The position numbers were made by a program, and so were the translations under genes. A stretch of DNA of 64,000 bases from an uncultured Gammaproteobacteria bacterium (GTDB lineage Bacteria; Patescibacteriota; Patescibacteriia; UBA9934; GWF2-40-263). Below, piece by piece: positions 1 to 61,015 of this stretch (position 1 is the first letter of the stretch; each line of letters opens with the position of its first letter). The notes beneath the pieces are model-generated. The model searched no databases. It worked only from the letters and a program-made list of their open reading frames with translations, and was not told where the DNA came from. The stretch spans positions 117,930 to 181,929 of the forward strand of contig CAZIDX010000002.1 of NCBI GenBank assembly GCA_964538435.1, given 5' to 3'.

Positions 1-1851
1 GATGCTTGGCACGCAGCACTCCCAGATAACATTCGCGAGTGGCTCCTCAACGAACGTGGTGTTGCTGCTGAGGTGATTGATGAAGCCAAGCTCGGCTGGA
101 GTGGTACCCACCTCACCATCCCGATCCCAGACGCGAGCGGTAAGTATCTCTTCGTGAAGAAGCGTCGTACGCCTCTTAGCGATGAGGGGCCAAAGTACGA
201 GAACGCAACTGGATCAAAAGCAGCACTCTTTGGGGTCGAGTACCTAGAAGACGCTGTGATGATCGTGATCTGCGAGGGAGAGCTTGATGCGCTTGTACTG
301 CGCTCACAGGGTATCCCAGCCGTTACATCGACGGGTGGTGCCAAGACGTTCAATGATGAATGGGTGGAACTATTCAGCAAGATCGAGCATGTCTTCATCT
401 GCTATGACAACGACAAACCAGGTCAAGAAGGTGCTCGTCGTGTTGGAGAGCTGATCCCCCACGCCAAGATCATGACTCTTCCAAAGGAGGTTGGTGAGGC
501 GGGTGACCTGACGGATTTATTTGTCCGTCTCAAAAAGACCCCAGACGACTTTCTTGCCCTTCAGCGAGACGCAAAGACCCTTGGGGAGCTGGAGGAGGCT
601 GGGGAGCGATTCAAGGCCCTTCCCAAGCCCAGTAAGACCATCAGCTTAGATGAATGGCGAGAAGTGATTTATCAGAATTTCCCTGAGTGCCTGACGGCTG
701 CCGAGGTGGGAGTGGCTGTGATAACCCAGCTCTTGATCAAGGACGTCCGCAACCCGTTTGGTCTTGTCTATGTGGACGTTCCAAGTGCTGGTAAGACGAT
801 TGCGCTGAACTTCTTCTCAAAACTAGACGAGCTGGTCTACACAACCGACAGCTTCTCTCCAGCTTCCCTTGTCTCACACGCCTCCAACCGCAAAAAGGAA
901 GACCTGAAGAACATCGACCTGCTTCCTCGCATTCGTCACAAAGCCCTTGTGGTGCGTGACTTGGCTCCTATGTTCGCTGAGAGGCAGGAGAATCTGCTCA
1001 AGAACCTTGGGGTTCTGACCCGTGTGTTTGATGGTGAGGGTTATGAATCGGACTCTGGTGTTCACGGCAAGCGTGGTTATAGGGGTGACTACATGTTTAC
1101 GTTTTTGGCTGCGAGCACACCTATTCAGCCGCGCGTATGGCGGTTCATGGGGGCACTCGGATCTCGATTGTTCTTCTTGAACATGAACGTCGGCGACAAG
1201 TCGGAAGACGAACTTGCTGAGCTCTTAGTCGCTGATGATTTCAAGAAAAAGGAAGGTGTGTGTCGTGATGCAACTCGTGACTTGCTCCTATCGATTTGGG
1301 ATCGATTCAACGGCGGTGTGACATGGAACAAGCGTGGTGACCCAGAAAACGTTCGTGTCATCATTTCTCGCTGTGCAAATCTCTTAGCATACTTGCGAGG
1401 AACCATGGAGATATCGTCTAGTGATGAATATAGTGGCAACGCTGATTACAGCGACAAGCAAACGGAAAAGCCGATGCGTATCAATCAGCTTCTCTACAAC
1501 CTGGCTCGTGGACACGCCCTTGCGTGTGGCCGCATACAGATCACGGATGCTGACTTGAGACCTGTTGTCGAAGTCACGCTCAATTCTGCCCAGCAGAACC
1601 GTGTGAAGCTCTTCACAGCGCTCATTGAGCATCAGGGCACGATGAACGTCGCATTGGTTGAGGAGGCTCTGGGTTGCAGCTACACCACCGCATCAAACGA
1701 AATGAGTGCGTTTGAATACCTTGGGCTGGCCAATCTTGAATCCCACAAGACCACAAGTGTTGGGAGGCCTGAGAAGATCATAACCATCGCGGATGATTTC
1801 GACTGGTTCTGTTCTGAGGAATTCAGAAAACTACGCGTTCAAAAGCCTTAA
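1..1851 (+). CDS. DnaG-like Toprim primase, 5'-truncated by window edge, with C-terminal P-loop-like region (phage/plasmid replication protein type)
   Basis: Reading frame is open from nt 1 (DAWHAALPDNIREWLLNERGVAAE precedes the GTG at 73). Toprim motifs ICEGELDALVL (Glu) and ICYDNDKPGQEG (DxD). Later a Walker-A-like PSAGKTIAL motif. Confidence 0.7.
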   Translation, partial: DAWHAALPDNIREWLLNERGVAAEVIDEAKLGWSGTHLTIPIPDASGKYLFVKKRRTPLSDEGPKYENATGSKAALFGVEYLEDAVMIVICEGELDALVLRSQGIPAVTSTGGAKTFNDEWVELFSKIEHVFICYDNDKPGQEGARRVGELIPHAKIMTLPKEVGEAGDLTDLFVRLKKTPDDFLALQRDAKTLGELEEAGERFKALPKPSKTISLDEWREVIYQNFPECLTAAEVGVAVITQLLIKDVRNPFGLVYVDVPSAGKTIALNFFSKLDELVYTTDSFSPASLVSHASNRKKEDLKNIDLLPRIRHKALVVRDLAPMFAERQENLLKNLGVLTRVFDGEGYESDSGVHGKRGYRGDYMFTFLAASTPIQPRVWRFMGALGSRLFFLNMNVGDKSEDELAELLVADDFKKKEGVCRDATRDLLLSIWDRFNGGVTWNKRGDPENVRVIISRCANLLAYLRGTMEISSSDEYSGNADYSDKQTEKPMRINQLLYNLARGHALACGRIQITDADLRPVVEVTLNSAQQNRVKLFTALIEHQGTMNVALVEEALGCSYTTASNEMSAFEYLGLANLESHKTTSVGRPEKIITIADDFDWFCSEEFRKLRVQKP

Positions 1852-17431: not shown

Positions 17432-19516
17432 CTAGAAACCCGGCCACACCTTGCGAAGCGCCTCCCTCGTTGCATGACCCATCTTCAGGCCCCGCGCAGT
17501 CTCCTTGTCGTACCAGCTTGCCGAAGCAATCTCCACCAGATCCACATCCGCCTCGTACTCGATCAGCACGCGAACCAGGATGTTGGTCACCACGTACGCA
17601 CGCTCCTCACCACCGGGCTTGACCCAGCCAGTGTAGTGCACGCTCACGTTCTCCGGAGCAGGCTCGGGCAGACCCGTCAGGTCCACACCAATCTCCTCAC
17701 CAGCCTCGCGGATCCCCGCACAGAGAGCATCGTGATCTTCAGGATCGATGATGCCACCCACATGCGCGAAGTAGCCCGGATAGGACGTGTCTTCCCCACG
17801 CTCGACCAGCAGCACCCGATCCGTGATCGGATTGTGCAACGTCAGCGTGGCAGCCCTGCGCAGATTCTTGTGGATCGACGGCGGCTCCAGAATCCAGACC
17901 CCTTCGTTCTCGATCCGCTGGACCGTACGGAAGCCTCGAGCCTGGTAGAACTCAGCCACTTCGCAGTTGTCATGTGCAGCCACGAGCACGCCTCGCTGGT
18001 TGATCTGATCCACCAGCTGCTGACCCAGACCCATGCCACGAGCCTCACCGTTGAGGTAGAACGAGTGCCACCCCTCCTCGGTCCTGGCCACCACACCAGC
18101 AATCACATCGCCGGCAAAGATGAGGCTCAGACTCACGCGCCGAGCAAAGTCCGGCCGACCGATCTGCTTCAGGTGGAACAGGTACTCGGACGCAGCTACA
18201 TCCCATTCCTTGCGGATCTGGTTCACAGCATTGAGGTCTCGAAGGTACAGCACATGTCCGTGATTGGTCATCTCGAGCATGAGTGTGTCGCTATCGAGCC
18301 ATGCATCCGAGACATTCGAATTGCATGCCAGTGCCTCGAGAACACTCATGGCCTGCTCGAGCGTACCACACGGGTACGAGAGCCGGGTCTTGGCCATGTT
18401 CTCACCAACCACCCATCCATCATGGAAGTGCAGGCTGGCCGCATGTGCGAACGCTCTGTGGACATGCAGATGCACAGACGAATCGATGCTGGGCTTCTGA
18501 CCCTTCGAGCCCGAGAAGAGCACTTCACGCTTGTCAGGATTCCCGAGCCGCACCGAGATCAGATCGTCCAACTCAAGCTTGCTCTTGTCTGTGGCCCGAG
18601 GGTTCACCAGAAGACTTCCGTCCCCTGGAGCCACTGCCACATTTCCAGACGTATCGCAGAGCAACCCCGCATCCTGAGCAAACTCGATGAGGTCACGCAC
18701 AAGCTGCGCACGTATAGGGCTCGCTTCTGCAAAAACGATCTCAGGAGAACCATCCACTACCTGCACACTCCTGTGCCAGTGGGTCGCGCGGTAGCGAGCC
18801 ATGATCTCCACGATCTGACGCGCCACATCATCGCTGTGTCCCTCGATGCGCACCACGCCACCATCCGGTGTCACCCACCAGATGGGATGCTGTCCGCCAC
18901 CGATCTCCTCGGCCAGGTTCGCAATCGTGCCATTGAGCCGCGCTCGCTTGTTCTGCTTGCGCGCAGCAGCGATCACATCCTGCAGGCTCGAGTTCTTCTG
19001 ACTCAGCAGCTTGAACCCCACGATCAGGCACTCGATCCCGAACTTCTCCCGCCAGGTGTCGAGCACCTTGGGAAGCTTGGGAATGCGCAGCACGAGCTCA
19101 TCACTGCTCGAGGAGATCTTCCCCTCGATCGGATTGAGAAACCCGAAGTCACTGACCGCAGCCGCGCTCATGGCGTATCCCGGCTGACCGTAGGTCTGGA
19201 CTGCCTCGTCAATGGCCTCCAGATACTCCTTGAACGTGCTGAACACGATCACCTTGGCACCCTTGGGAAGATTCGACCGATGCTTGTAAAAAGCGAACTC
19301 GCTGAGAACGAGCACCACCGGAATCCCGCGGCGGGCGAAGTGATGTGCGAACGTCACTGCAAAGCCACCCTTTGCCTTGTTGGCCATGGAACGCATGGCA
19401 TCGACTTGCGCCATGGTTCCACCACCCGTGATCAGGGCGTATGGAGCTTGAAAGGACATGTCTTGACCTCCAGTTGCCAGTGAATCTGGCAAGGCCAGAT
19501 CATAGCAGAATTCCAA
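17432..19516 (-). CDS. 694-aa four-domain fusion: CoaB-like (phosphopantothenate-cysteine ligase family) / class II aldolase-adducin-like / GNAT acetyltransferase / Nudix hydrolase
   Basis: ITGGGTMAQVDAMRSMANKAKGGFA (CoaB signature); SGNVAV...HLHVHRAFAHAASLHFHDG...LEMTNHGHVL (class II aldolase); GMGLGQQLV...AEFYQARGF (GNAT); GGIIDPEDHDALCAGIREAGEEIGV (Nudix box). GC3 very high; the plus-strand ORF 17474..19483 is antisense-like. Confidence 0.75.
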   Translation of the reverse strand: MEFCYDLALPDSLATGGQDMSFQAPYALITGGGTMAQVDAMRSMANKAKGGFAVTFAHHFARRGIPVVLVLSEFAFYKHRSNLPKGAKVIVFSTFKEYLEAIDEAVQTYGQPGYAMSAAAVSDFGFLNPIEGKISSSSDELVLRIPKLPKVLDTWREKFGIECLIVGFKLLSQKNSSLQDVIAAARKQNKRARLNGTIANLAEEIGGGQHPIWWVTPDGGVVRIEGHSDDVARQIVEIMARYRATHWHRSVQVVDGSPEIVFAEASPIRAQLVRDLIEFAQDAGLLCDTSGNVAVAPGDGSLLVNPRATDKSKLELDDLISVRLGNPDKREVLFSGSKGQKPSIDSSVHLHVHRAFAHAASLHFHDGWVVGENMAKTRLSYPCGTLEQAMSVLEALACNSNVSDAWLDSDTLMLEMTNHGHVLYLRDLNAVNQIRKEWDVAASEYLFHLKQIGRPDFARRVSLSLIFAGDVIAGVVARTEEGWHSFYLNGEARGMGLGQQLVDQINQRGVLVAAHDNCEVAEFYQARGFRTVQRIENEGVWILEPPSIHKNLRRAATLTLHNPITDRVLLVERGEDTSYPGYFAHVGGIIDPEDHDALCAGIREAGEEIGVDLTGLPEPAPENVSVHYTGWVKPGGEERAYVVTNILVRVLIEYEADVDLVEIASASWYDKETARGLKMGHATREALRKVWPGF

Positions 19517-19660: not shown

Positions 19661-20308
19661 ATGAACGAAGGAAACCTGCTCACCATGTGCCACGGAGACA
19701 TCGGTGTGGGACAAGTAACCACCTCGACAGCACAGACCGAAGACCAGACCGAAACCGAGCTGAGCCAATGGCCACATAGCGCCACGCTCACCCCATGGAT
19801 CATCCCCATGGGCACAGAGCGCCCGATCCCCTGGAAGGAACCGGCCACGCACATCTCCAGACTGATCCGCCCCACGGACACCGTGGCCCTGATCAGCTTC
19901 CGTGATCCCACGGATTGGGAAGGCATCGCGCTTCGCATGCTCGAAGCCGAGAACCAGAGCGTGAGCATCATGATCATCGCTCCGGACGGAACCGATCCTC
20001 GCGTGCTCGGCACCCTGATCTCGAACGCCGGCGACCACGCTTCCATGCACGGTCGTATCCAGCACGAGCGCGAAAAGGTCGTGTTCGAAGCCTCGGATCA
20101 CCTCATGCGCATCCTGGGTATCGATCTGCGCAAGGCTGTGCGCAACTCCATCACCCTGATCCACCAAGGCCGTGTCAAGGCTTCCTGGATCTCCATGAGC
20201 CGCGAAGGCTCAGGACCGCACGACTGGTCCGGAACCCAGCGCACCCTCGAGCTCTTTGCCGAAGAAGAGCCCACGGACGTCTACGAAGAGCTCGAACTCG
20301 AAGAGTAA
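19661..20308 (+). CDS. hypothetical protein (GC-rich island), acidic C-terminus
   Basis: High GC3 in plus frame, varied composition; overlapping minus ORFs are G/A/R/V-rich antisense artefacts. Confidence 0.5.
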   Translation: MNEGNLLTMCHGDIGVGQVTTSTAQTEDQTETELSQWPHSATLTPWIIPMGTERPIPWKEPATHISRLIRPTDTVALISFRDPTDWEGIALRMLEAENQSVSIMIIAPDGTDPRVLGTLISNAGDHASMHGRIQHEREKVVFEASDHLMRILGIDLRKAVRNSITLIHQGRVKASWISMSREGSGPHDWSGTQRTLELFAEEEPTDVYEELELEE

Positions 20309-20939: not shown

Positions 20940-21182
20940 ATGCATTTCGTATACATTCTCTACAGTGAATCTCATAATCGTTATTACATCGGCTCTACAT
21001 CAGATATAGACAAACGTCTTGTTGCTCACAATTCTGGAAAAACCCGATCAACAAAACCTTTTAGGCCTTGGAGGATAGTTTATTCCAAAACACTAGAAAC
21101 GAACACTGAGGCAAGAAAAAGAGAAAACCAAATCAAAAGATACAAAGGAGGAGAAGCTTTCAAAAAACTCATAAACAACTAG
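20940..21182 (+). CDS. small GIY-YIG nuclease family protein (YhbQ/UPF0213-like)
   Basis: YILYSESHNRYYIGSTSDIDKRLVAHNSG (GIY...YIG...R...H/N), ...RENQIKRYK; stop codon overlaps first nucleotide of the tRNA. Confidence 0.8.
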   Translation: MHFVYILYSESHNRYYIGSTSDIDKRLVAHNSGKTRSTKPFRPWRIVYSKTLETNTEARKRENQIKRYKGGEAFKKLINN

Positions 21183-21294: not shown

Positions 21295-22519
21295 GTCTGA
21301 TATAATAAAGACCTCAAACAATACTATGAAACTCTTTCACCACCACACCGCGCGCCACCACCACAGAACACTCGACTCAGACTTCTGGCTCTTTGAACTC
21401 TCTGTGTGGATGCACACCTTTGCCCGAGCCCTCATTGCCATTTTCATCCCAATCCTGCTTCTCCAACTCGACTATTCTGTCAGCGACGTCATGCTCTACT
21501 ACTTCCTCTACTGCCTCTTTGACGTCCCTCTCAACTTTCTTGCTGACTCTGTTGTAAGGCGGATTGGTGCGCGAGCAGCCATCACAGCCGGAACACTTGC
21601 TGCCATCGCCTTTTTCATCATCCTCTTTGCCCTCACTCCAAACAACTGGCCACTCATTGTCGCCCTCGCTCTAGCAGCTGCCATCTACGACACGCTCTAC
21701 TGGGTCGCCCATCTCTACTTTTTCATGGAGAGCAGCAAGAACCGCAAGAGCGCATCAAAAGACACTGGCCTTATGAGCATTGCCAGGCGCCTCGCAGGCC
21801 TACTCGCACCAGCATTCGGAGCACTTGTACTAATTTTCTTCAGCGACAAAGTCCTCATCCCAATCAGCATCTTAATCCTGCTACTCTCAATCGTACCACT
21901 ACTCAAAGCAAAACACGTCAAAGACAAACCAACAAAACCAAAACCAACCTTTAAAGAATTTTTTCCAGAGTGGCGAAACCTTCGCGACTACGTCATTACA
22001 AGCCTGTACGGAGTTCATGCAGCAGCCGAAGGCATCATCTGGCCAATGTTCATCTTCCTCACATTTGAATCCATCGAATCTGTAGCCATTATTCCAATCA
22101 TTGTCTCAATCACAGCAATGATCTTTACCTTCTTTGTTGGAAAACTCAAACGCTCACACTTTAAAGAATCGATTGCCATCGCAAGCACTCTTATCGCTGT
22201 AGCCTGGGTGCTCAGATTCTTCTTTGCTGTTCCAACATTTTATTTCGTCAGTGTATTCCTCGTCGGACTCTTCATGGTCTTCATCAGCATCCCAGTGGAC
22301 AGCAGCATTTACGAACGAGGAGAAAATGTTGATTCTCTCACCAGCTCCACCTACCACAACTTCTTTGCCATGATCTCAAAACTTATCTTCTTCGGAGTCT
22401 TAGCGCTTGTCTCACACATCTTCCCTTCAACGTTTTGGATCGCAGCCTCATGCATGATTCTTGTGGCGCTCATTGCTGGCTTTGCCCACCCAGTTCTGCC
22501 CCAAACCATCAAAAAATAA
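21293..22519 (+). CDS. polytopic membrane protein, MFS-transporter-like (about 12 TM)
   Basis: ORF track 408 aa, repeated hydrophobic helices, His-rich N-terminus. Confidence 0.5.
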   Translation: MSDIIKTSNNTMKLFHHHTARHHHRTLDSDFWLFELSVWMHTFARALIAIFIPILLLQLDYSVSDVMLYYFLYCLFDVPLNFLADSVVRRIGARAAITAGTLAAIAFFIILFALTPNNWPLIVALALAAAIYDTLYWVAHLYFFMESSKNRKSASKDTGLMSIARRLAGLLAPAFGALVLIFFSDKVLIPISILILLLSIVPLLKAKHVKDKPTKPKPTFKEFFPEWRNLRDYVITSLYGVHAAAEGIIWPMFIFLTFESIESVAIIPIIVSITAMIFTFFVGKLKRSHFKESIAIASTLIAVAWVLRFFFAVPTFYFVSVFLVGLFMVFISIPVDSSIYERGENVDSLTSSTYHNFFAMISKLIFFGVLALVSHIFPSTFWIAASCMILVALIAGFAHPVLPQTIKK

Positions 22520-22593
22520 TCCCCAAAATTGATCATTGACTTTTTGACATAGTTTCTATAGAATAGCCCTCGTACTCGCTATTTTCGGCATTT

Positions 22594-22678
22594 GGGTCGG
22601 TACTCAAGCGGTCAACGAGGTCAGACTGTAAATCTGATGGCATCGCCTTCGCAGGTTCGAATCCTGCCCGGCCCACCA
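22594..22678 (+). tRNA. tRNA-Tyr (anticodon GTA), class II with long variable arm
   Basis: GGGTCGG acceptor, TCAGA-CTGTAAA-TCTGA anticodon arm, long variable arm, GCAGG-TTCGAAT-CCTGC, CCGGCCC-A-CCA. Confidence 0.85.
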
Positions 22679-22679
22679 T

Positions 22680-22755
22680 GCCACCTTAGCTCAGTTGGTA
22701 GAGCACCGGTTTTGTAAACCGTAGGTCGTCGGTTCGAGTCCGACAGGTGGCTCCA
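22680..22755 (+). tRNA. tRNA-Thr (anticodon TGT)
   Basis: GCCACCT acceptor, GCTC-AGTTGGTA-GAGC, anticodon loop TTTGTAA, GTCGG-TTCGAGT-CCGAC, AGGTGGC-T-CCA. Confidence 0.8.
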
Positions 22756-22855
22756 GAAAAACATTCAGAGAAATCTGAGTGTTTTTCTTTTCTAACAAGT
22801 TAATATTTTTTGCCTAAGCCTAAGCAAATTTTGCTTAAATTAGCGTCAGGATCAC

Positions 22856-22884
22856 TTGACAAAAGTGCAAAAATATGCTATGAT
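22856..22884 (+). promoter_or_regulatory. strong sigma70-like promoter TTGACA-N17-TATGAT
   Basis: TTGACA 22856-22861, TATGAT 22879-22884. Confidence 0.55.
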
Positions 22885-22890
22885 GGTACC

Positions 22891-22976
22891 ACAATTGAAC
22901 TGGGGAGAGAGACCAAGTGCCATTCTTGGACCCAAACAATGGCAAAACAAGCAAAATCACCGAAAACCGGTTTTTG
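22891..22976 (+). ncRNA. candidate ~85-nt small RNA beginning CUGGGGAGAGAGACC and ending in an intrinsic terminator
   Basis: Promoter upstream, no ORF, terminator gaaaaccggttttt; 5' motif shared with 32043 element. Confidence 0.4.
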
Positions 22977-23021
22977 TCTAAATTTCTCCTCCAGAAAATA
23001 GATAAAAATCGGTTTTTGTTT

Positions 23022-23155
23022 TTTCAGCGCCCCGTCCAAGACTAAGGAAATTCCTTATTCTCGGACGGATCACCCTGATCCATCGACTCAACTCGCTCCC
23101 TGTCCCCTCGTAGAGGTGGATAAAGCGCTGGCTCCTGAATAAGGGGTCGGAAGGC
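23022..23155 (+). promoter_or_regulatory. structured leader RNA element, copy 1 of 4 (nested hairpins ccgtcc...ggacgg)
   Basis: Shares outer stem CCGTCC/GGACGG, conserved CGACU...CUGYCCCU...AGARGUG...GCGCUGG core and a pre-RBS hairpin with copies 2-4. Inner hairpin sequence differs but pairing is preserved. Confidence 0.5.
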
Positions 23156-23419
23156 ATGTTCGTTATGATGACCCTCGCGCTCACCGCTCGCTTCGCCGTC
23201 AACTTCGCCAAGGGCTTCGGCCTGGTTTCCCTCTTGGTCTTCATGACCTTGATGGTGGTGGGGCTCGAGATGAGCTTCCACGCGGGGACGACCTTGTCCC
23301 TGAAGACCATGGTGGAAGTCTGCACGATCACGGCGCTTCTCGGAGTCCCAGCAGGCTGGTTCGTCGCCTGCTACCCGATCGAAGTACCTCAGGCGAAGAT
23401 CCTGAACACGCCCAACTAG
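23156..23419 (+). CDS. small hydrophobic protein (87 aa, 2-3 TM)
   Basis: ORF track; ATG 7 nt after GGAAGG. Confidence 0.5.
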   Translation: MFVMMTLALTARFAVNFAKGFGLVSLLVFMTLMVVGLEMSFHAGTTLSLKTMVEVCTITALLGVPAGWFVACYPIEVPQAKILNTPN

Positions 23420-23538
23420 GGCCGGTATCTCCTTGCCTTTCGGGAGATGACGAACTACTTAGATAGGCAAAGGGCACGCAACCACCCTAAATCAGGAAGC
23501 ATCCAGCGACGACCTCACCAACGCAATGAGTGAGGTAT

Positions 23539-23662
23539 CCGTCCAAGACGCATAAGCACCCGCTTGTGCCCCTCGGACGGAATATCTCCGTTCGACTTCC
23601 CCGCCCTCTGCCCTGTGAGAAGGTGCAAGGCGCTGGCCCCTACGGGTCGAAAGGCAGCTGCT
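23539..23662 (+). promoter_or_regulatory. structured leader RNA element, copy 2 of 4
   Basis: See copy 1; pre-RBS hairpin ggccc-ctac-gggtc. Confidence 0.5.
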
Positions 23663-23992
23663 ATGAAGCGCGCCCTGATCACCGCCACCAACATCTGGAA
23701 CACCCTGCCATGGTGGATCCAGACACCAGTCATGATCTTCACTATTTACTTCTTGGTCTGCCTGTTCTTGGGACAGATCGGAGTATTCGTGAATGCAAGC
23801 GTCCGAAGCTCCTTCGGGGGAGATTTCTCCCTCATGGACTTTCTGAACTCAGAAGCCACCGCCGTGTTCTACGCAGGCGTGTTGTCCATGGGATGCACCA
23901 TCCTCATGGGCGCTCACGAAATCTTGATGAACTTCGCACGCTACCGCGCGTTCATGAAAGTTTTCGTGGGTCTCGAAGACGAGAACGAATAG
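23663..23992 (+). CDS. small hydrophobic protein (about 110 aa); track ORF 23564 starts inside the leader
   Basis: ATG 23663 after GAAAGG; hydrophobic helices. Confidence 0.5.
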   Translation: MKRALITATNIWNTLPWWIQTPVMIFTIYFLVCLFLGQIGVFVNASVRSSFGGDFSLMDFLNSEATAVFYAGVLSMGCTILMGAHEILMNFARYRAFMKVFVGLEDENE

Positions 23993-24024
23993 ACCCACTG
24001 CCCCGCTACTACGTAACCGGGGCT

Positions 24025-24150
24025 CCGTCCAAAGCGCACAAGCAAATGCTTGTGCCCCTCGGACGGAATATCTCCGTTCGACTTCCCCGCCCTCTGCCCT
24101 GTGAGAAGGTGCAAGGCGCTCGTCCCGTGTGGACGAAAGGCTGACGTGTC
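24025..24150 (+). promoter_or_regulatory. structured leader RNA element, copy 3 of 4
   Basis: Nearly identical to copy 2 over the core; pre-RBS hairpin cgtcc-cgtgt-ggacg (compensatory change). Confidence 0.5.
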
Positions 24151-24426
24151 ATGACCTGGTTCCAGAAATTCAAAATCTTCGCGTGGAAAACATTTTGGAT
24201 TGGCTTCCTGTCTATGAACATGCTATTCGCAAGTTTGGGAGCATTCTTCTGCGTGGACATCTTGGAGTTTGAGCTCATGCTCATCTCCTCCGTCGTCATT
24301 GGCGCCATGATCTTCGGATCACTTGCAGCCACCTTCCCAAAGATCGGGGAGGAGATCTTCTACCTCAAGGAAGAAGACGGAAAGATGGTGGATGCCTACC
24401 CACCCGCAGAAAGCAAGGAACAGTAG
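24151..24426 (+). CDS. small hydrophobic protein (91 aa)
   Basis: ORF track. Confidence 0.5.
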   Translation: MTWFQKFKIFAWKTFWIGFLSMNMLFASLGAFFCVDILEFELMLISSVVIGAMIFGSLAATFPKIGEEIFYLKEEDGKMVDAYPPAESKEQ

Positions 24427-24492
24427 CAAGGATCAGTTGCTTCTCCTCAAGAAAGCAACACCACGACTAGCCTCACCAACGCATGTGAGGCT

Positions 24493-24534
24493 CCGTCCAA
24501 AGCGCATAAGCACCCGCTTGTGCCCCTCGGACGG
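24493..24534 (+). promoter_or_regulatory. structured leader RNA element, copy 4 (5' module only), followed directly by a terminator and no ORF
   Basis: Identical to 5' module of copy 2. Confidence 0.45.
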
Positions 24535-24540
24535 ATCATC

Positions 24541-24574
24541 CAAAAACGAGAAGGCTCAATGCCTTCTCGTTTTT
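24541..24574 (+). terminator. intrinsic terminator
   Basis: acgagaaggc-tcaat-gccttctcgt followed by TTTT. Confidence 0.65.
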
Positions 24575-24622
24575 ATTTCTCACCACCCCTCCAAATAAGT
24601 TTAATTGCCAACTAAAGGTGAG

Positions 24623-24745
24623 TGATTTGTTGTGTTTAGACCATCGCGCAGACAAGCCAGCTTGGTGCCCCGAAGGGGATGGCTTGTCGAGCGTGAGCAG
24701 CGACCGCCGCTGGAGCGGTCGACTGCGAGTCTAAATACAACAATC
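24623..24745. ncRNA. GC-rich structured element closed by a ~17-bp stem (GATTTGTTGTGTTTAGAC ... GTCTAAATACAACAATC) in convergent intergenic region
   Basis: Long terminal inverted repeat enclosing internal hairpins (cccc-gaa-gggg, cgaccgc..gcggtcg); no ORF. Confidence 0.35.
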
Positions 24746-25565
24746 ACGAACCTTCTTCCCTCTCTGTCTTCTGTATATACTTCTCCTTCATCTCCTGAAA
24801 CTTCTTTTCAAACCCTTCAATCTTCGTATTCTCAGGATTCACTTCTTTCAAAGCCGTGATCCCTTTTCGAACATCCTTGAGCGATCCAGCCTTGAGCGCA
24901 GCCTCGATGTAAAAATCTAGATACTTTGGATTCTTTGCTCGCTTCTCTATTGCCTTGCGCAAATACTCAAGCGCCCCGCGATAATTCTCAAGCCCGATCT
25001 CAAGCTCAGCTAAAGACACATTCACACTCGCATCATCCGGCGAAAGCCGCAACGCAAACCTAAGTGTCTCACGCGCCTGTTCATACTGCTCGTCTTCGAT
25101 ATACATATTCCCCAACCCTTCGTATGCATCAACATTCTTTGGGTTGTGACTGATGATATCAATAAAGATCTTTTCAGCAGGGATAAACTCCTCTTCTTTG
25201 ATGTAATCATCAGCCTTGTTAATAAGCTCTTTCACGATCTCAGAGCTGTAAGAATGCTGCCCCTCAGTCGATGATCGCTTAAGCTTTTGATAGTACTGCT
25301 CCATGCGATACAAACGCTGCACAGCACGCCGCCCCATCTTTGAAACAGCCACCACAGCCTTCCCTGTTTGTTTTGAAACCGTCCTGAGTTTTGCCCCTCC
25401 CTTACGATTAAACTTTTGCAAAATAAGCTTTTCCTTTACCAACCGCTCTCGCTCCTTTGGAATCGTATCAACATCAATCATTCGAATCTGCGGCAATTTC
25501 TTGTAAACCACAAAACCGATCACGATCAGAGCTATCACGATAATTGCTATAGGAATCAGCCACAT
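24744..25565 (-). CDS. membrane-anchored TPR-repeat protein
   Basis: N-terminal TM helix then TPR-like repeats (AYEGLGNMYIEDEQYEQA...). Confidence 0.6.
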   Translation of the reverse strand: MWLIPIAIIVIALIVIGFVVYKKLPQIRMIDVDTIPKERERLVKEKLILQKFNRKGGAKLRTVSKQTGKAVVAVSKMGRRAVQRLYRMEQYYQKLKRSSTEGQHSYSSEIVKELINKADDYIKEEEFIPAEKIFIDIISHNPKNVDAYEGLGNMYIEDEQYEQARETLRFALRLSPDDASVNVSLAELEIGLENYRGALEYLRKAIEKRAKNPKYLDFYIEAALKAGSLKDVRKGITALKEVNPENTKIEGFEKKFQEMKEKYIQKTEREEGS

Positions 25566-31991: not shown

Positions 31992-32042
31992 GTGCCTACA
32001 ACATGAGAAGAAAGAAATTGCTTCTCGTACACTACAACTTAG

Positions 32043-32172
32043 ATCTCTGGGGAGAGAGCCGATAAGACCACGGTAAATGGTCTTCAACAGGAATCTAGCA
32101 AAAGCTAGAAAGCCGGTTGTTGTATGTATCTGACTCACTCCACAGAAAGATGCATTCAACAACCGGCTTTTT
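32043..32172 (+). ncRNA. sRNA/attenuator unit beginning CUGGGGAGAGAG and ending in a terminator hairpin (agccggttgttg ... caacaaccggct + TTTTT)
   Basis: Homologous 5' motif and AAUGG element to sRNA at 22891; 12-bp terminator stem. Confidence 0.4.
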
Positions 32173-32318
32173 CTTATAGAAACATAGGGCGTTCATGATT
32201 GAGACCAATTTTGGTGAACGGGATGTCAGCGCCAGAGGCGTACTGAAACGTACGTCGACAAGCTGACAGGGACCCGTGAGCCAAAAGTGGGCCGATCAGG
32301 AATGCGCTTATATCCAGT

Positions 32319-32745
32319 CTCATGGAGGAGAGAGAAAACCGTCCGAGGAACTTCTTTATGAAGAACCTTGGCGGCGATCACTGAATGGTTCCACTCGGTT
32401 TAACCCGCTTGCGGGTCCTAGCTGACTGAATCCATACGCCAAGTGATCACGAATGATACTCGAGCTTGCTCAAGTCACTCATTCACCCCTACCCCTCCAG
32501 GAGACTGCATATAACTTCCAACCGGGAAATTCGGAGGAGAGAGAAAACCCGTTCGATTGATCTCAACAGAGTGACATCGACGGTGAACATCAAATGGTTC
32601 GACTCGGCACGTCTGACTCGATCCATACTACCGATGTTCAAGATGTACACCAGCCCTCGGGCAGGTCACTACAATTTTCTTCTCCGGTTTCCCCGGCCGG
32701 ACCTGATCAGTCCATTCCAAGCCGAGGGGTGCACCCAAACCGTTC
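32319..32745 (+). repeat. tandem duplication of a ~214-nt structured unit (starts 32319 and 32533), each beginning GGAGGAGAGAGAAAACC and containing AAUGGUUCSACUCGG and GAWYCCAUAC blocks
   Basis: Blocks align at constant spacing between the two units. Confidence 0.5.
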
Positions 32746-32760
32746 GAGGAGGACTCCACA

Positions 32761-33029
32761 TGAACACCCGCACCGCCACCACGACCGCCATCTCCGCCAC
32801 CTCCGTGACCATGAGCGACTGGCTCGCCGGTGACGTCGAAGATTTCAGCCTCATCGAGGCCGACATCGACGACATCGACACCGACGACTTCCACGCCACG
32901 ACCCTGGAGGAGAGCGTCGAGATCATCGCGGCCCTGGGCACCATCGCCCTGACCGCGGTGCTGATCGCCAGCACCTTCCCCAACATCACCGAGGCCGTCA
33001 CCGGCGGCCTGAGCTTCATCCTCTTCTAG
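32761..33029 (+). CDS. small protein (89 aa), acidic N-terminal half and hydrophobic C-terminal half
   Basis: ATG 32761 after GGAGGA; high GC3. Confidence 0.4.
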
Positions 33030-33474
33030 AGGGAAGCTCGCCTGCTACTAGGTGCAGGCAACGGGGGCGACGCTAACGCAATTGCGTCGCCTATCCCAAT
33101 GAGAACTGGATCCATGCTTCCAGTGCTCATCAGGATACCGATCCTTACAAAGAATGATCTCCGCGACGCACGATTGAATCTCGATCCTGCATCGCGGAAA
33201 TCATCAAAGCAAATATCCAATCAGATCAAAAAGACTGCACACCTAAACACTGTTAACAAGAAACCTAATAGCGAAAGCGAACTGGAATCAAGTTAATAAG
33301 AATAGGCAGAGAAGTGAAGGGGGTGAAAAGGAGCTTCGGCTCCCAACCACAACCAGATCATCTCGCGTGCACCTTTCTGAACTGGATGGAGGAAGCTGAA
33401 GCTGATGGGCGTGGTGCCCACCCCGCAACAGTAGAGTAGGGCACCAGCCCAAAACAAACAGGCTGCCCAAAACA

Positions 33475-35148
33475 GTGGGTAGCACAGCGCACTGGAGTAC
33501 ACCCATGACCACCTCCCCCGCCAACCTGACCTCCCCCGTCTGCACCGACGCCCAGGGCCGCGACTGGACCTCCGACGAGGCCAAGGCCCGCCGCGCCATG
33601 AAGGCCTGGGCGCGTCTCAACGGTCGCCGCCAGGAAGAGCCGAAGATTCGCGAGCTCCAGGCGTCCGAGGGCGGTCTGGGCTGGCACACCATCGGCGACG
33701 AGAACTGCTTCGACCTCGAGATCGACATGAACGACCGCGGCTGGTTCGAGATCGACCAGTTCGCCACCGACGAGGTCGTGTCCAACCTGATGGGCGTCGA
33801 GACCAGCACCAACATCGACCTGGCCACCGCCCTGACCGACGAGATCGTCCGCGACGAGGCCTGCCTCGACGCGATCCGCGTGCTCATCGACACCGTGGGC
33901 TACGCCCAGGCCATGTCCAAGCTCGAGGAGATCATCACGATCACCAAGGGCGAGGACGAGGACGGCCCCTACGTCGACATCGACATGGGTGACTTCCCGG
34001 CCATGGTCGAGGCATACCGCACGGTCGCGACCGACCCCCTGGTCACCCAGTGCGACATCCCGATCTGCTGGCTCGTCGGCTTCAACGGCGCTCCTCTGGG
34101 CGTCAACGGCCTGGCCACCATCGAGCAGGCCATCGACAACGCCGAAGAGCTCGACATCGACTGGCGCCTCTGGATCGAGGGCGACGAGGACGAGCAGTGC
34201 ACCGCCATGCACGTCGTCACCGAGCTCGCGTCCCGGCTGCAGGGCAAGGTCAAGCGCGTCCGCGCCCAGGCCGAGCGCGCCGAGCGTCAGGCCAAGGCCC
34301 AGCGCAAGGCCGCCGAGCGCGCCGAGCGTCAGGCCAAGGCCCAGCGCAAGGCCGCCGAGCGCGAGACCACCCAGAAGGTCGAGACCCCCAAGGTCGAGAC
34401 CGACTGGATGGGTCGCGTCCAGGGCCCCAGCGGCGAAGCCATGTTCCAGTGCACCGGCCGCCGGTACGTCCCGCCCGCCACCAACGACCAGAGCCCGTTC
34501 GGCGCCCAGGGCCCGACCGAGGGCACGCACGAGCTGTGCCAGGTCAAGGGCTCGGCCGACTACATGTACGTCGGCTCCCTGGACTCCATGTGGCGGCGTC
34601 AGAACCGCAACGTGGTCGAGGTCTGGCACCTGGCCAACCATGCGCTCTGCCCGAGCTGCATGGAGCGGATCTCCCGGTCCGTGGCCCGGAAGAACGGTGG
34701 CAACCGCCCGTTCTTCCAGACCGTCAGCGAGGCGATCGACCTCATCGAGGCCGAGGAGCGCAAGCTCGAGAACAACAACACGTTCTTGCGCACGCCCGGC
34801 ATGGACTCGTCCATGCGCGCCTCCCGGTTCGCCGTCAAGGTGGACTGGGCCGCAGACGACGCGTGGAAGACCCTGGCCAATCGCGCACCGAACCTGTCCG
34901 GCGCCCAGTGGGCGGCCCTGCGCCACTCGCTCCAGCTGGGCACCCTGGACCTGACGGTGCTCACGCGCCAGATCGTCCCAGGCTGGGAAGTCGACGGCGA
35001 CGCAGGCTACATCGGCTACTGGCTGATCTGCAAGCTCGAGCGCGACCAGGTCGCGTGGCAGAACCGCCAGCGCGAGCGCAGCGCCCGCAAGAACGCGCGC
35101 AACCGCCACGGCCGCGGCCAGTCGCACGAAGCGCCCTGGATGCGCTAG
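33475..35148 (+). CDS. hypothetical protein, very G+C-rich, with internal coiled-coil tandem repeat and Cys pairs
   Basis: Plus frame has high GC3 and protein-like composition; the longer minus ORF 33358..35397 is L/A/G/R/V-rich antisense. Confidence 0.6.
   Translation: MGSTAHWSTPMTTSPANLTSPVCTDAQGRDWTSDEAKARRAMKAWARLNGRRQEEPKIRELQASEGGLGWHTIGDENCFDLEIDMNDRGWFEIDQFATDEVVSNLMGVETSTNIDLATALTDEIVRDEACLDAIRVLIDTVGYAQAMSKLEEIITITKGEDEDGPYVDIDMGDFPAMVEAYRTVATDPLVTQCDIPICWLVGFNGAPLGVNGLATIEQAIDNAEELDIDWRLWIEGDEDEQCTAMHVVTELASRLQGKVKRVRAQAERAERQAKAQRKAAERAERQAKAQRKAAERETTQKVETPKVETDWMGRVQGPSGEAMFQCTGRRYVPPATNDQSPFGAQGPTEGTHELCQVKGSADYMYVGSLDSMWRRQNRNVVEVWHLANHALCPSCMERISRSVARKNGGNRPFFQTVSEAIDLIEAEERKLENNNTFLRTPGMDSSMRASRFAVKVDWAADDAWKTLANRAPNLSGAQWAALRHSLQLGTLDLTVLTRQIVPGWEVDGDAGYIGYWLICKLERDQVAWQNRQRERSARKNARNRHGRGQSHEAPWMR
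34279..34362 (+). repeat. perfect 42-bp tandem repeat x2 inside CDS (encodes AERQAKAQRKAAER twice)
   Basis: gccgagcgtcaggccaaggcccagcgcaaggccgccgagcgc repeated exactly. Confidence 0.7.
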
Positions 35149-35519
35149 TGCGACCGCAGGCATGAGGCTCCCTGCATGAAAAGAAGCCCAAAGGGTACTC
35201 CTAAACCCTCCACCTGCTTGAAGGTGGTTAATCCGAGAGGATGGAGTTGAGCAGCCGCAAGCTTCTCGTAAAACCGAAACCGCCCCTGTACGCAACAGGG
35301 AGGACGGGCCGATCGCGTAAAAAACGATCGGCCATCCCTCAGAGAGGTTTAGACTCATGAAACAGTCTAGAAACCTCTGACCGGATAACCAGAACAACCA
35401 AGTCCGATTTTGTCACGGACTTTAGACCTACCAAACAAAAACCCATCCACCGACAAGGTGGAGATCAGTCTGGCCTTTAGCAAGCCAGAACGACAAACTG
35501 ATCAGATCCTTGAAGGAGG

Positions 35520-36254
35520 ATGCTCATGTCCCATCGCAACACCAGCCCCTTCGGCGCCCAGTCCAACCCCAACCGCCGTCGCAACCGCCGCCCCCGCCGC
35601 CCGACCTTCGAGATCTGCCTCAAGGCCCTCGCGGTGTACACGCGGTTCATCTTCATGAGCCGTCTCCCCCACCCGGCCGACGCCAGCGACGAGGCCAAGA
35701 ACACCCTGTTCACCCAGGCCACGGACTCCTACGTCCCCTGGGCCAAGGGCTCCTACGCCTCCGCCAACGGCACCCGCCTGTGGGCCCGCGGCATCGCGCG
35801 CGTGGACGGCACCGAGGACAAGCTCCAGGCCATGCTCGACGAGATCGAGAAGCCCGAGCTCGTGCGCGTCAAGCGCGGCAACGCCCTGACCACCAAGGTC
35901 AACGGCAAGCCCGTACCCTTGGCCGACCGCCAGGTGTACGTCCTCAAGGTCGCCGGCATGGCCCTGCTGCTGGGTTGCCACCCCAACAGCATCACCCCCA
36001 CCAACACCAAGTCCGCCTTCGCCAAGGACGACTTGGTGGGCCCCCAGCGGATCGGCACCCGCGCCAGCCAGGAACTCATCCAGCGCATCTTCCCGAGCGC
36101 CATGCTGGCCGAGTTCAACGCCGAGTTCGAGGCAGCGGCCCCCAAGGCCAAGGCCCAGAACAAGGTCGAGGACGGCGCCGAGGTCACCGAGCTCCCCACC
36201 CCGGCCCCGGCCGACACCTCCGTCAAGCCCGCTCCCGCGGCCGAGGCCTGCTAG
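35520..36254 (+). CDS. hypothetical protein, very G+C-rich; shares SPFGAQ motif with upstream neighbour
   Basis: Protein-like frame; ORF 35510..36280 in the other frame is R/P/G-rich artefact. Confidence 0.55.
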   Translation: MLMSHRNTSPFGAQSNPNRRRNRRPRRPTFEICLKALAVYTRFIFMSRLPHPADASDEAKNTLFTQATDSYVPWAKGSYASANGTRLWARGIARVDGTEDKLQAMLDEIEKPELVRVKRGNALTTKVNGKPVPLADRQVYVLKVAGMALLLGCHPNSITPTNTKSAFAKDDLVGPQRIGTRASQELIQRIFPSAMLAEFNAEFEAAAPKAKAQNKVEDGAEVTELPTPAPADTSVKPAPAAEAC

Positions 36255-36490
36255 CATGGCTGGCTAGCAAAGCGAGGTGAAACGCGCTTAAAGGGGACGG
36301 CGCAGTGAAAGGAGAAATCCTGGATCTGCGCCGGCCCCTGAGGCAAACGAAAACGCAAGACCTGGCCAAACGCAAACAGCCAGGTCCGATCGTCAAAGCT
36401 GAGAAGTGTCTCACTTCTCGCCTCTGATGATCGCCAAGCGCGATTAAACGTTTGACCAATAAACCCTCTCCCCTTATTGGTCAGACATGC

Positions 36491-60952: not shown

Positions 60953-61015
60953 CTTCCACGAAACCAGGCCCAACCCGTCCACAATCCCGCCACAGCGAGA
61001 CAAGGACGGGTTTTC

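Follow-up and report, generated by a model that had tools for sequence, protein, structure and literature searches.

A putative composite intercistronic mRNA element amplified locally in a candidate operon of a Candidatus Uhrbacteria-like genome

In the 64-kb stretch of DNA analysed here (the window), which comes from a Candidatus Uhrbacteria-like (CPR) genome, four hairpin elements with the outline CCGTCC...GGACGG were found, beginning at positions 23032, 23539, 24025 and 24493. With a probability of roughly 0.5, we read them as copies of one composite intercistronic mRNA element that acts in cis and was amplified locally within a single operon. The repeat is genuine, a locally amplified between-gene element that appears to be selected for its structure; its roles in processing, stability and translation, and RNA as the functional strand, are proposed from sequence. 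What the earlier note had described as a single leader proved to be a composite of a 3′ module (a variable hairpin H0 and a conserved hairpin P1), which follows ORFs, and a 5′ module (hairpins P2, P3 and P4 with the Shine-Dalgarno sequence, SD), which precedes them.

The array and its candidate transcription unit

When the window was searched with the pattern CCGTCC-N15-45-GGACGG, the four P1 hairpins of Table 1 were recovered against 0.05 matches expected in shuffles, which bears out the four copies previously claimed. A further match at 60975 looks unrelated. Copies 1-3 were confirmed to lie ahead of small hydrophobic ORFs, and copy 4, as also noted before, carries no ORF and is followed directly by a terminator. 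A consensus scan of 22500-25000 for sigma-70-like sites found one strong candidate upstream of the array and none within it or on the minus strand, and the single terminator stands at the array's end; from this arrangement we infer that one transcription unit spans the promoter, the leader, the three ORFs and the terminator. The terminator has an A run upstream and a T run downstream and thus may act in both directions, and the stretch holding copy 4 and the terminator (24460-24580) folds with z = -10.6. Neighbouring genes comprise tRNAs, MFS, TPR, TIM, M16 peptidase, class-II tRNA synthetase, RRF and holB, and upstream ORFs carry HD, kinase, DFP/NUDIX and Mur ligase domains.

Table 1. Features of the array, in window coordinates
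Feature	Position	Strand	Description
Sigma-70-type promoter	22856-22884	+	TTGACA, 17-nt spacer, TATGAT, upstream TG; 11/12 hexamer matches
Conserved 5′ leader RNA, about 140 nt	22886-23026	+	GGGAGAGAG box, small hairpin, then 20-bp A/U-rich hairpin
Copy 1 P1	23032-23068	+	Outer stem CCGUCC/GGACGG, internal loop, inner stem UAAGGA/UCCUUA
Copy 1 5′ module	23067-23155	+	P2 GGAUCA/UGAUCC 23067-23081, UCGACU box, P3 23094-23127, P4 23128-23150
ORF1, 87 aa	23156-23419	+	Hydrophobic stretches consistent with two transmembrane segments; GC1/2/3 = 0.51/0.40/0.86
H0 before copy 2	23513-23535	+	CCUCAC/GUGAGG, loop motif CACCAACGC
Copy 2	23539-23662	+	P1 23539-23580, P2 23574-23594, P3 23602-23632, P4 23635-23648, SD GAAAGG 23649-23654
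ORF2, 109 aa	23663-23992	+	Two hydrophobic segments suggested by hydropathy scan and reading by eye; GC1/2/3 = 0.45/0.37/0.75
H0′ before copy 3	24001-24022	+	CCCCG/CGGGG; sequence unlike other H0; predicted in fold of 23993-24185
Copy 3	24025-24150	+	P1 24025-24066, P2 24060-24080, P3 24088-24118, P4 24121-24135, SD GAAAGG 24135-24140
ORF3, 91 aa	24151-24426	+	Two hydrophobic segments, acidic C-terminal tail; GC1/2/3 = 0.43/0.33/0.70
Copy 4	24471-24534	+	H0 24471-24490 and P1 24493-24534 only; operon's 3′-terminal module
Intrinsic terminator	24542-24579	+	14-bp perfect stem (24542-24574), A run upstream, T run downstream

The real 5′ regulatory leader of the operon is a different RNA, which lies upstream of the repeats. 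Its A/U-rich hairpin (about 22961-23018) is followed by the U run UUGUUUUUU, and the leader as a whole folds with z = -4.1. A stable hairpin and a U run placed between promoter and ORFs are the features of an intrinsic-terminator-type attenuator, and the leader hairpin, judged by its sequence, looks like a terminator or attenuator. The hairpin recurs in six sequences, where compensatory and wobble changes preserve it; over its basal 16 bp, 92.7% is paired and both members of four pairs differ. The promoter region can be closely aligned with that of a relative (locus L043) and with paralogous loci adjacent to holB. Leader identity to L043 is 91%, against 74% for the adjacent TPR coding sequence, which argues for selection on the regulatory frame. 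A model of the leader (R2) detected a paralogue within the window (32029-32180), with counterparts in L047, L046 and L060; in several Uhrbacteria this paralogous leader stands at a second locus, hypervariable and rich in GC3, beside holB.

The three ORFs are real genes, with a GC3 of 0.70-0.86 against a GC2 of 0.33-0.40; the possibility of a long non-coding RNA in their place was rejected because this period-3 signal is strong. At least three ATG-initiated ORFs of at least 80 codons on one strand occurred in 1.1% of shuffles. For ORF1 the true start may be the ATG at 23165, since the spacing from the SD to the ATG at 23156 is only about 2 nt. Codon usage of the ORFs is unlike that of housekeeping genes. 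No homologue of ORF1 or ORF2 was obtained by a word-indexed search of 5.8 billion clusters, nor was anything on record in an exact look-up of ORF2; a full HMMER search of ORF3 against 1.84 billion representatives returned only its own truncated gene call. Pfam, PHROGs, NCBIfam and PADLOC gave no usable family match for any of the three.

The block had also been described as richer in G+C than its surroundings. This excess was traced mainly to the third codon positions of the ORFs. A recent foreign island, as judged by GC, was rejected: other conserved genes of housekeeping type here are likewise GC-rich, namely a DFP/NUDIX fusion (17432-19516) and a gene with a homologue in L043 (19661-20308), and the island's own promoter and leader, which are conserved, are rich in AT. 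At the island border, att-like direct repeats of the tRNA 3′ end were looked for and not found. A phage or plasmid origin is not supported, the 2-kb block having no blastn match in INPHARED or PLSDB. An assembly artefact is unlikely: unique ORFs separate the repeats, and the right end was reproduced by an independent Logan assembly, whose contig breaks inside copy 4.

Structure and conservation of the copies

P1 consists of a 7-bp outer stem, a 5+5-nt internal loop, an 8-bp inner stem and a small loop, and its ends read TCCGTCC...GGACGGA in all copies. The sequence of the outer stem is nearly invariant in all five examples, that of L043 included. Copy 1 places P1 ahead of the first ORF, a position that a pure role as 3′-end stabiliser would not need. 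In this copy the outer stem has its four inner pairs at a probability of 1.0, P2, P3 and P4 are present in MFE folds with pair probabilities of 0.56-1.0, and the SD (GGAAGG, 23148-23153) lies just ahead of the ATG. In copy 2, P1 and P2 exclude each other because both use one GGACGG, and P2 has a probability of 0.79 against 0.21 for the P1 outer stem, with P4 at 0.82-0.85. Over copies 2 and 3 taken together, the predicted values for this common strand are 0.12-0.21 for P1 and 0.79-0.88 for P2, and the element could therefore be bistable. Such exclusivity is confined to these two copies and is absent in copy 1.

It was further found that a hairpin H0, which the earlier description lacked, stands ahead of each of copies 2-4. 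The H0 before copy 2 is repeated before copy 4, and its 9-nt loop motif CACCAACGC is identical in L043, where the stem differs. Copy 4 is a mosaic, its 5′ part matching copy 3, its inner hairpin matching copy 2 and its 3′ tail resembling copy 1. Copy 4 and the L043 copy both lack P2-P4, and the 3′ and 5′ modules are thus separable. The conserved 3′ end of every full unit includes the SD, and the SD region has a mean unpaired probability of 0.25-0.37. The short box CCGTYCRA is found 20 times where 7.65 would be expected; the array accounts for ten of these, and another three fall within untranslated sequence at the second leader-controlled locus.

Copies 2 and 3 had been called nearly identical in their core, and this holds: over 118 nt (23538-23655 versus 24024-24141) they share 89% identity, with no difference across the central 70-80 nt or so, and the differences are confined to the P1 internal loop, the inner stem or loop, and the pre-SD hairpin. 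The hairpins named in the earlier note were likewise recovered with their pairing retained through base changes. It is clear from P4 that GGCCC/GGGUC in copy 2 became CGUCC/GGACG in copy 3 by five substitutions, with pairing retained and flanks otherwise identical. The basal helix of P3 contributes one compensatory pair (CGCU/AGCG versus CGCC/GGCG). In the P1 inner stem both sides have changed at five pairs, and pairing is preserved in 94% of cells, as compared with 23-42% in slid controls; all five double changes come from copy 1 and hence amount to about one independent comparison, and instead of stepwise compensation the hairpin may have been replaced wholesale. Copy 1, for all its strong sequence divergence, retains P1, P2, P3 and P4. 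Each of the three full copies has a more stable fold than shuffles (z = -3.6 to -4.0). The effectively independent sequences number two to three, at which covariation tests have no real statistical power.

The segment CUGYCCC...AGRUG, which had been taken for part of a conserved single-stranded core, folds instead into a hairpin of three parts, P3, whose pair probabilities are 0.5-1.0. Neither a multi-helix junction nor a supported pseudoknot was found in the unit, which is made up of four hairpins in series. A long-range switch pairing UCGACU:GGUCGA was considered and rejected, its probability being at most 0.01 with flanks included. Plus-strand specificity was not supported by folding energy either: in copies 2-4, P1 folds on the minus strand at least as well as on the plus strand, so that thermodynamics does not pick the strand.

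Distribution among relatives and in databases

The sole homologue of any part of the repeat outside this genome was H0 with P1 in one related lineage (L043/L053), where H0, P1 and a terminator follow an unrelated 145-aa membrane ORF and the outer stem contains a U.G wobble. The L043 locus has the matching promoter and leader, a single ORF and a single P1, which sits after the ORF and just ahead of the terminator, not in the 5′ leader. Because H0 and P1 lie 3′ of the ORF there, P1, which is the best-conserved portion of the repeat, behaves as a 3′ or intercistronic element and not as an aptamer. The region preceding the L043 ORF was tried as a P3-P4 homologue and was not significant (24-101 of 500 shuffles scored as high). 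Presence of the island varies among close relatives, and those outside the L043/L053 lineage lack it.

In the window, model R1 and pattern searches located copies only at 23030-24609, and on 12 distinct syntenic loci from relatives the same model found only the P1 of L043/L053. In the GTDB representative genomes the P1 pattern gave 41 matches, all judged to be chance and none with a downstream UCGACU box; one of them (L011), inspected in full, lies inside coding DNA of a high-GC genome. A stricter P1 pattern had no match in the JGI metagenomes. Four patterns run on IMG/VR (P1, P4-SD region, H0-P1 and leader) gave none or chance matches, with P4-SD judged by eye and H0-P1 and the leader by CMs. 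As the GTDB, JGI and IMG/VR scans need exact matches, they could miss distant relatives. Across GTDB, JGI, IMG/VR and the 12 syntenic loci, the full four-hairpin unit, for which the earlier note proposed a wider search, is present only in this window.

Rfam 15 at gathering score returned only tRNAs in the window, and at E ≤ 10 the interval 22500-25000 gave only weak matches to microRNA and sRNA models, far below the cut-offs. A literature search for regulatory RNAs of this kind in CPR/Patescibacteria likewise yielded nothing. With no relevant Rfam match and pairing kept through base changes, the earlier proposal of an undescribed structured cis-acting RNA associated with small hydrophobic ORFs stands in this general form.

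Proposed mechanism and alternative explanations

In the reading that we favour, the leader would be the probable operon-level control point. H0-P1 would serve as RNA punctuation in cis at each cistron boundary and before the terminator, as a processing site, an exonuclease barrier or both, or as a protein binding site, and P2-P4 would give every cistron one common structured translation-initiation region in which the SD is partly occluded by P4. As to origin, copies 2 and 3 are nearly identical beside unrelated ORFs, which points to duplication, gene conversion or recombination of the module. Intercistronic hairpins concerned with stability or processing are familiar from the REP/BIME elements of the E. 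coli malEFG operon and from the Rhodobacter puf operon. In common with them, the present element has imperfect hairpins that lack U tracts, lie between the cistrons of a single operon at several boundaries and beside ORF 3′ ends, and plausibly act in cis on RNA. It differs from both in that the repeat includes a structured translation-initiation region (P2-P4 with the SD) and flanks unrelated orphan genes, and its processing role is a proposed one; unlike dispersed repeats of the REP/BIME or MITE type, it occupies one locus in the 64-kb window.

Each copy might instead be a riboswitch aptamer or an operator for an RNA-binding protein, with P1/P2 and P4 switching downstream translation and three cistrons placed on one signal. 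The GGACGG shared by P1 and P2 in copies 2 and 3, the partly paired SD region, the excess of the CCGTYCRA box and the lack of any fitting Rfam family agree with this, and the near-invariant P1 outer stem in all five examples suggests sequence-specific recognition. We nevertheless regard it as unlikely, since the unit is four serial hairpins with neither junction nor supported pseudoknot, P1/P2 exclusivity is not kept in copy 1, the downstream genes have no common function or family to hint at a ligand, and the full unit has no homologue in any collection searched. The recurrence of one architecture across many genomes that marks a riboswitch was not seen, and P1 also lies 3′ of ORFs (in copy 4 and, by a terminator, in its sole outside example), so the riboswitch or leader class first suggested is not borne out. 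Tandem riboswitches and the RAT antiterminator sites of bgl/sac operons are known repeated cis-regulatory leaders; like them, the element is structured and recurs before successive cistrons, with P1 and P2 exclusive in two copies, but it has no terminator overlapping P1 or P2 and neither family-wide conservation nor an Rfam match.

That P1 acts at the DNA level, as a hairpin recombination site flanking exchangeable cassettes behind one upstream promoter in the manner of attC sites and CALINs, appears distinctly unlikely. P1 lies on both sides of every ORF, the ORFs are promoterless, orphan, mutually unrelated, about 0.5 kb apart and deviant in codon usage, L043 keeps promoter, leader, H0, P1 and terminator around a wholly different single ORF, and the island is present or absent among close relatives. 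The geometry of P1 recalls the attC layout of R-box, unpaired spacer, L-box and variable loop. Integron arrays and CALINs resemble the locus further in their single upstream promoter, in small promoterless orphan ORFs bounded by imperfect hairpin repeats, in near-identical repeats within an array and in ORF content that varies between relatives. However, scanning of ORFs within about 10 kb revealed neither IntI nor another recombinase, tyrosine recombinases included; a few large ORFs in this range gave no Pfam match, and CALINs may lack an integrase. Read from the sequence, P1 has neither the attC R″/R′ consensus RYYYAAC/GTTRRRY nor AAC/GTT core sites. Moreover, the conserved repeat runs about 70 nt past the hairpin, unchanged in copies 2 and 3 and with the SD included, which is unexpected if the cassette boundary is the 3′ end of P1 and unlike the cassette-specific flanks of attC, and L043 has only one P1. 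A broader version of this idea, that the locus is a CPR gene-cassette platform in which promoter, leader, H0-P1 and terminator are fixed and unrelated, fast-turnover, GC3-rich small membrane-protein genes are inserted, multiplied and replaced between junctions marked by P1, we consider quite unlikely; the junctions would work through a recombinase or an RNA-level mechanism, and, given the paralogous leader at the second locus beside holB, the outcome would be a clade-wide diversification of membrane or surface proteins.

It is decidedly doubtful that the repeats have no function of their own and simply arose as a UTR segment was duplicated in tandem and underwent gene conversion in the recent past. 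Recent gene conversion can explain the unchanged centre of copies 2 and 3 without function; the mosaic copy 4 and the restriction of the full unit to this genome in the searches made fit as well. Against this, the strongly diverged copy 1 keeps P1-P4, all P4 changes between copies 2 and 3 preserve pairing, and H0-P1 persists in a lineage with just 74% identity in the adjoining coding DNA.

A tandem type I toxin-antitoxin-like array, in which hydrophobic membrane toxins would be silenced by their 5′ UTRs and an RNA antitoxin, is highly improbable. Small hydrophobic proteins do stand in tandem behind long, stable UTR structures, as in the ldr/rdl long direct repeats, zor/orz and aapA/isoA, and a separate short RNA upstream, the leader, has its own promoter and a terminator-like hairpin. 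Type I toxins are typically shorter than 60 aa with one hydrophobic segment, whereas the present ORFs are 87-109 aa long and have two such segments each. In tandem type I arrays the toxin gene itself is duplicated, but here only the UTR is repeated and the proteins, which had been put forward for comparison, show no pairwise similarity (best BLASTP E-values 2.3, 22 and none). In the consensus scan, the minus strand of 22500-25000 showed no antisense or divergent sigma-70-like site and no antisense RNA signal. The RNA upstream runs in the same direction as the array, with no complementarity to the repeats noticed by eye, and PADLOC and the other family searches gave no match. Copy 4, once suggested as an antisense or sRNA partner, is the operon's 3′ end, conserved as such in L043 in the order H0-P1-terminator. 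Neither a widespread riboswitch nor a toxin-antitoxin array is thus supported.

To our knowledge, CPR/Patescibacteria are mostly uncultured and their gene regulation has been little studied. The element is so far documented in a single genome, and one part of it in another, and its general importance is unproven. The locus nonetheless brings together a compact set of RNA structures, namely an attenuator-like leader family, a 3′/intercistronic hairpin pair and a repeated translation-initiation region, on orphan small membrane-protein genes with unusual codon usage, and in a related lineage the regulatory frame is conserved around a wholly different ORF cargo. If the modules act as proposed, a reduced genome would co-regulate and punctuate a polycistronic mRNA with them; if cassette exchange were true, the locus would represent an undescribed route to rapid envelope-protein turnover in episymbiotic bacteria.

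Array of structured repeats and its small genes

The window was scanned for the pattern CCGTCC-N15-45-GGACGG, and matches were obtained at all four copies of the repeated element (chance expectation 0.05). A fifth hairpin of this type, flanked by two ORF ends and otherwise without similarity to the array, is probably an unrelated terminator-type hairpin. Copies 2 and 3 were 89% identical across 118 nt, with zero differences in the central ~70-80 nt; copy 4 had only the first hairpin and ~40 nt upstream in common with copy 2. Each of copies 1-3 preceded an ORF, and copy 4 was followed by a perfect 14-bp terminator stem and a T run. The right flank in an independent Logan assembly stopped inside copy 4, as is expected if the repeat is true. 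Taken together, the pattern scan, the identity of copies 2 and 3, the ORFs after copies 1-3 and the terminator after copy 4 confirmed the four-copy repeat described in the earlier note.

Coordinates of features in the window and in loci from relatives' genomes (L numbers), with the predicted hairpins of the repeat
Feature	Position	Strand	Description
Promoter-like site	22856-22884	+	11/12 hexamer matches, extended -10; only strong one
Upstream leader	22886-23026	+	~140 nt, promoter to copy 1; 20-bp A/U-rich hairpin at end, then U run
Copies 1, 2, 3, 4	23032, 23539, 24025, 24493
ORF1	23156-23419		87 aa
ORF2	23663-23992		109 aa
ORF3	24151-24426		91 aa
H0			before copies 2, 3, 4; in copies 2 and 4 CCUCAC/GUGAGG, loop CACCAACGC
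P1			copies 1-4; outer stem CCGUCC/GGACGG 6-7 bp, internal region 5+5 nt, inner stem 6-8 bp
P2			copy 1 GGAUCA/UGAUCC; copies 2 and 3 GGACGG/CCGUUC
P3			copies 1-3; three-part hairpin
P4			copies 1-3; immediately 5' of GGAAGG or GAAAGG
Structured element	24620-24746		126 nt
TPR protein gene	24744-25565	-
GIY-YIG ORF	20940-21182		80 aa
Leader paralogue	32029-32180
Leader, L043	1898-2034	-
Leader, L047	2134-2266	-
Leader, L046	1028-1146	-
Leader, L060	510-659	-
Tandem units	32322-32760		L047 ~2120-1860(-)
ORF after tandem units	32760-33029		GC3 0.96
G+C-rich region	33300-36300		up to 70% G+C
Plausible genes	33475-35148, 35520-36254	+	no Pfam match
Fifth hairpin	60975-61009

The full unit was predicted to fold as four hairpins in series (P1-P4), with an additional variable hairpin, H0, before P1 in three of the copies. 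In copies 2 and 3 the GGACGG strand is common to P1 and P2, and P2 was the predicted winner (0.79-0.88 vs 0.12-0.21). The core that had been proposed to be single-stranded was not borne out, as it was predicted to form P3. Pairing was kept through sequence change in the inner P1 stem, the P3 basal helix and P4. The inner P1 stem was wholly different in copy 1, with both-side changes in five pairs and 94% of cells paired against 23-42% in slid controls; the P3 basal helix read CGCU/AGCG in copy 1 vs CGCC/GGCG in copies 2 and 3; and in P4 copies 2 and 3 had different bases at five positions of the stem, all with pairing kept, the flanks being otherwise identical. As no more than two to three of the sequences are effectively independent, these changes are suggestive rather than statistical evidence. 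For P1, the minus strand folded as well as the plus strand. The promoter scan gave a single strong site, 5' of the leader, with none inside the array or on the minus strand.

The 8-mer box CCGTYCRA occurred 20 times in the window vs 7.65 expected. Half of the occurrences fell within the array (23032-24534), where the box is the strand pairing with GGACGG; three were on the plus strand at 32339, 32549 and 32740, in the untranslated part of a second leader-controlled locus, and the remaining seven, located elsewhere, were at chance level.

The earlier note had also found the block richer in G+C than its surroundings; this excess is explained by the codon-position composition of ORF1-3. In the annotated frames, GC3 of ORF1, ORF2 and ORF3 was 0.86, 0.75 and 0.70, above both their GC2 (0.40, 0.37 and 0.33) and the GC3 of housekeeping genes in the window (0.43-0.56), indicating that the three ORFs are coding. 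A hydropathy scan and reading of the sequences suggest two hydrophobic segments in each. No match to ORF1-3 was obtained in Pfam, PHROG or PADLOC and no meaningful one in NCBIfam; pairwise comparison revealed no mutual similarity, and large protein collections gave no homologue, ORF3 matching solely its own shorter gene call. Genes with very high GC3 (0.70-0.96, housekeeping ~0.43-0.56) were located at 23156-24426, 32760-33029 and 19661-20308, and at 1411-1848(-) in L043; this class includes the ORFs that both leader-controlled loci carry as cargo, in two genomes.

Counterparts in relatives

The island, i.e., the operon of copies 1-4 and ORF1-3 with its promoter, leader and terminator, adjoins a TPR protein gene with >200 homologues, the named ones being from Uhrbacteria; the genome of the window is Candidatus Uhrbacteria-like (Patescibacteria/CPR). 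A covariance model built from copies 2 and 3 matched only the array within the window, and outside it a single place, directly 3' of the TPR gene (76% identical to that of the window) in L043/L044/L045/L053 (21.4 bits, E ~2e-4). The L043 locus keeps the promoter and the leader, the latter 91% identical vs 74% for the neighbouring TPR coding sequence. It carries a single unrelated ORF (145 aa, GC3 0.91, several hydrophobic segments, ~4 as read), a hairpin that has the identical CACCAACGC loop on another stem, a P1 homologue whose outer stem includes a U.G wobble, and a terminator; the presence of P2-P4 was not demonstrable at this locus. From this layout, H0-P1 is a 3'/pre-terminator module, the same as copy 4, and P2-P4 with the Shine-Dalgarno (SD) are, on comparison of the two loci, a separate 5' module. 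What had been described as a leader thus becomes a fusion of these two modules at cistron boundaries.

No island was present in L059 (TPR 75%), where tRNA-Thr(tgt) directly adjoins the TPR stop codon, in the relative's contig P0002 (TPR 82%), where the TPR-MFS gap of 295 nt is too short for it, or in L046, L047, L054-L058 and L060-L064, which have other genes in its place. Scanning GTDB genomes, JGI metagenomes and IMG/VR by pattern returned chance matches only, phages and plasmids yielded no blastn match, and a literature search turned up nothing relevant. As judged by these searches, the element matches no described family and is so far known in full from a single genome, one of its modules also occurring in a second lineage.

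A highly structured element (fold z = -7.6) separates the operon terminator from the TPR gene. It is delimited by an inverted repeat of 19 bp (GTGATTTGTTGTGTTTAGAC / GTCTAAATACAACAATCAC), the right arm of which overlaps the TPR stop codon. The element was absent at the equivalent place in L043 and L059, occurred only once in the window and had no Rfam match; it may represent a small insertion or a structure of the 3' UTR. A stand-alone GIY-YIG nuclease-domain ORF ends directly at tRNA-Thr(ggt). The orientation of the tRNA cluster relative to the island is inverted in L043, which suggests a local rearrangement around the tRNAs.

Upstream leader family and second locus

A covariance model of the upstream leader detected a paralogue in the window (37.9 bits) and counterparts of this paralogue adjoining holB in several Uhrbacteria (L047/L048, L046 and L060). 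All six leader sequences had the conserved sigma-70 promoter together with a GGGAGAGAG box and variable hairpins; a long (~20 bp) CCGG-containing hairpin, with a U run after it, was likewise common to them. Pairing in the basal 16 bp of this long hairpin was 92.7%; four of the pairs differed on both sides, and G.U pairs were numerous. The family had no Rfam match and is an undescribed RNA family of its own, one copy of which would drive the array. In the window and L047, the two loci that were read further downstream, the second-locus leaders lie ahead of structured untranslated repeats and of orphan ORFs with extreme GC3. The upstream leader is a better candidate for the operon sensor/attenuator than the four-copy element.

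The two tandem untranslated units of the second locus (~210 nt each) begin with GGAGGAGAGAGAAAACC(C)GTYCGA and contain a hairpin, AUGGUUCSACUCGG...CUGACUSRAUCCAU, that retains a C/C mismatch and, judged by eye, covaries between the window and L047. The small ORF after them has an acidic N-terminus and a hydrophobic C-terminus. Further downstream, the G+C-rich region contains long overlapping ORFs on both strands; the acidic protein that L047 encodes at the matching position has 472 aa and likewise lacks a Pfam match.

Possible roles of the array

The best-supported reading, to which we give a probability of about 0.5, is that the four copies are a cis-acting intercistronic mRNA module, whose strand, transcript and molecular effect we infer. 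H0-P1 would punctuate the polycistronic RNA as a processing or stability element or as a protein-binding site, P2-P4 would supply each cistron with a common, partly occluded ribosome-binding region, and the module may have spread inside the operon via duplication, gene conversion or recombination. The element is best placed in a known kind, the structured intercistronic or UTR elements.

The invariant stem of P1 and its predicted bistability with P2 would also suit a sensor, either a riboswitch or a protein operator; we consider this unlikely, and the riboswitch class proposed in the earlier note is weakened, because the hairpins are arranged in series, P1 lies 3' elsewhere and no wider family was found. 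That P1 acts at the DNA level as a cassette site is improbable: P1 does flank unrelated orphan ORFs and the cargo is swapped in L043, but no recombinase was found among the ORFs scanned within ~10 kb, attC core sites are lacking, and ~70 identical nt downstream of P1 are left unexplained.

It is also improbable that the repeats have no function of their own. Recent gene conversion can explain why copies 2 and 3 are nearly identical, but neither the retention of all four helices in the diverged copy 1 nor the conservation of H0-P1 in L043. A type I toxin-antitoxin array, the other proposal of the earlier note, is very improbable, as the size of the ORFs, their non-homology and the nature of copy 4 as a 3'/pre-terminator module argue against it; so does the promoter scan, which found no promoter-like site on the minus strand.

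The element would gain sharply in importance if the pattern of conserved frame and variable cargo proved to be that of a cassette system, or should the leader family turn out to be a widespread CPR attenuator.
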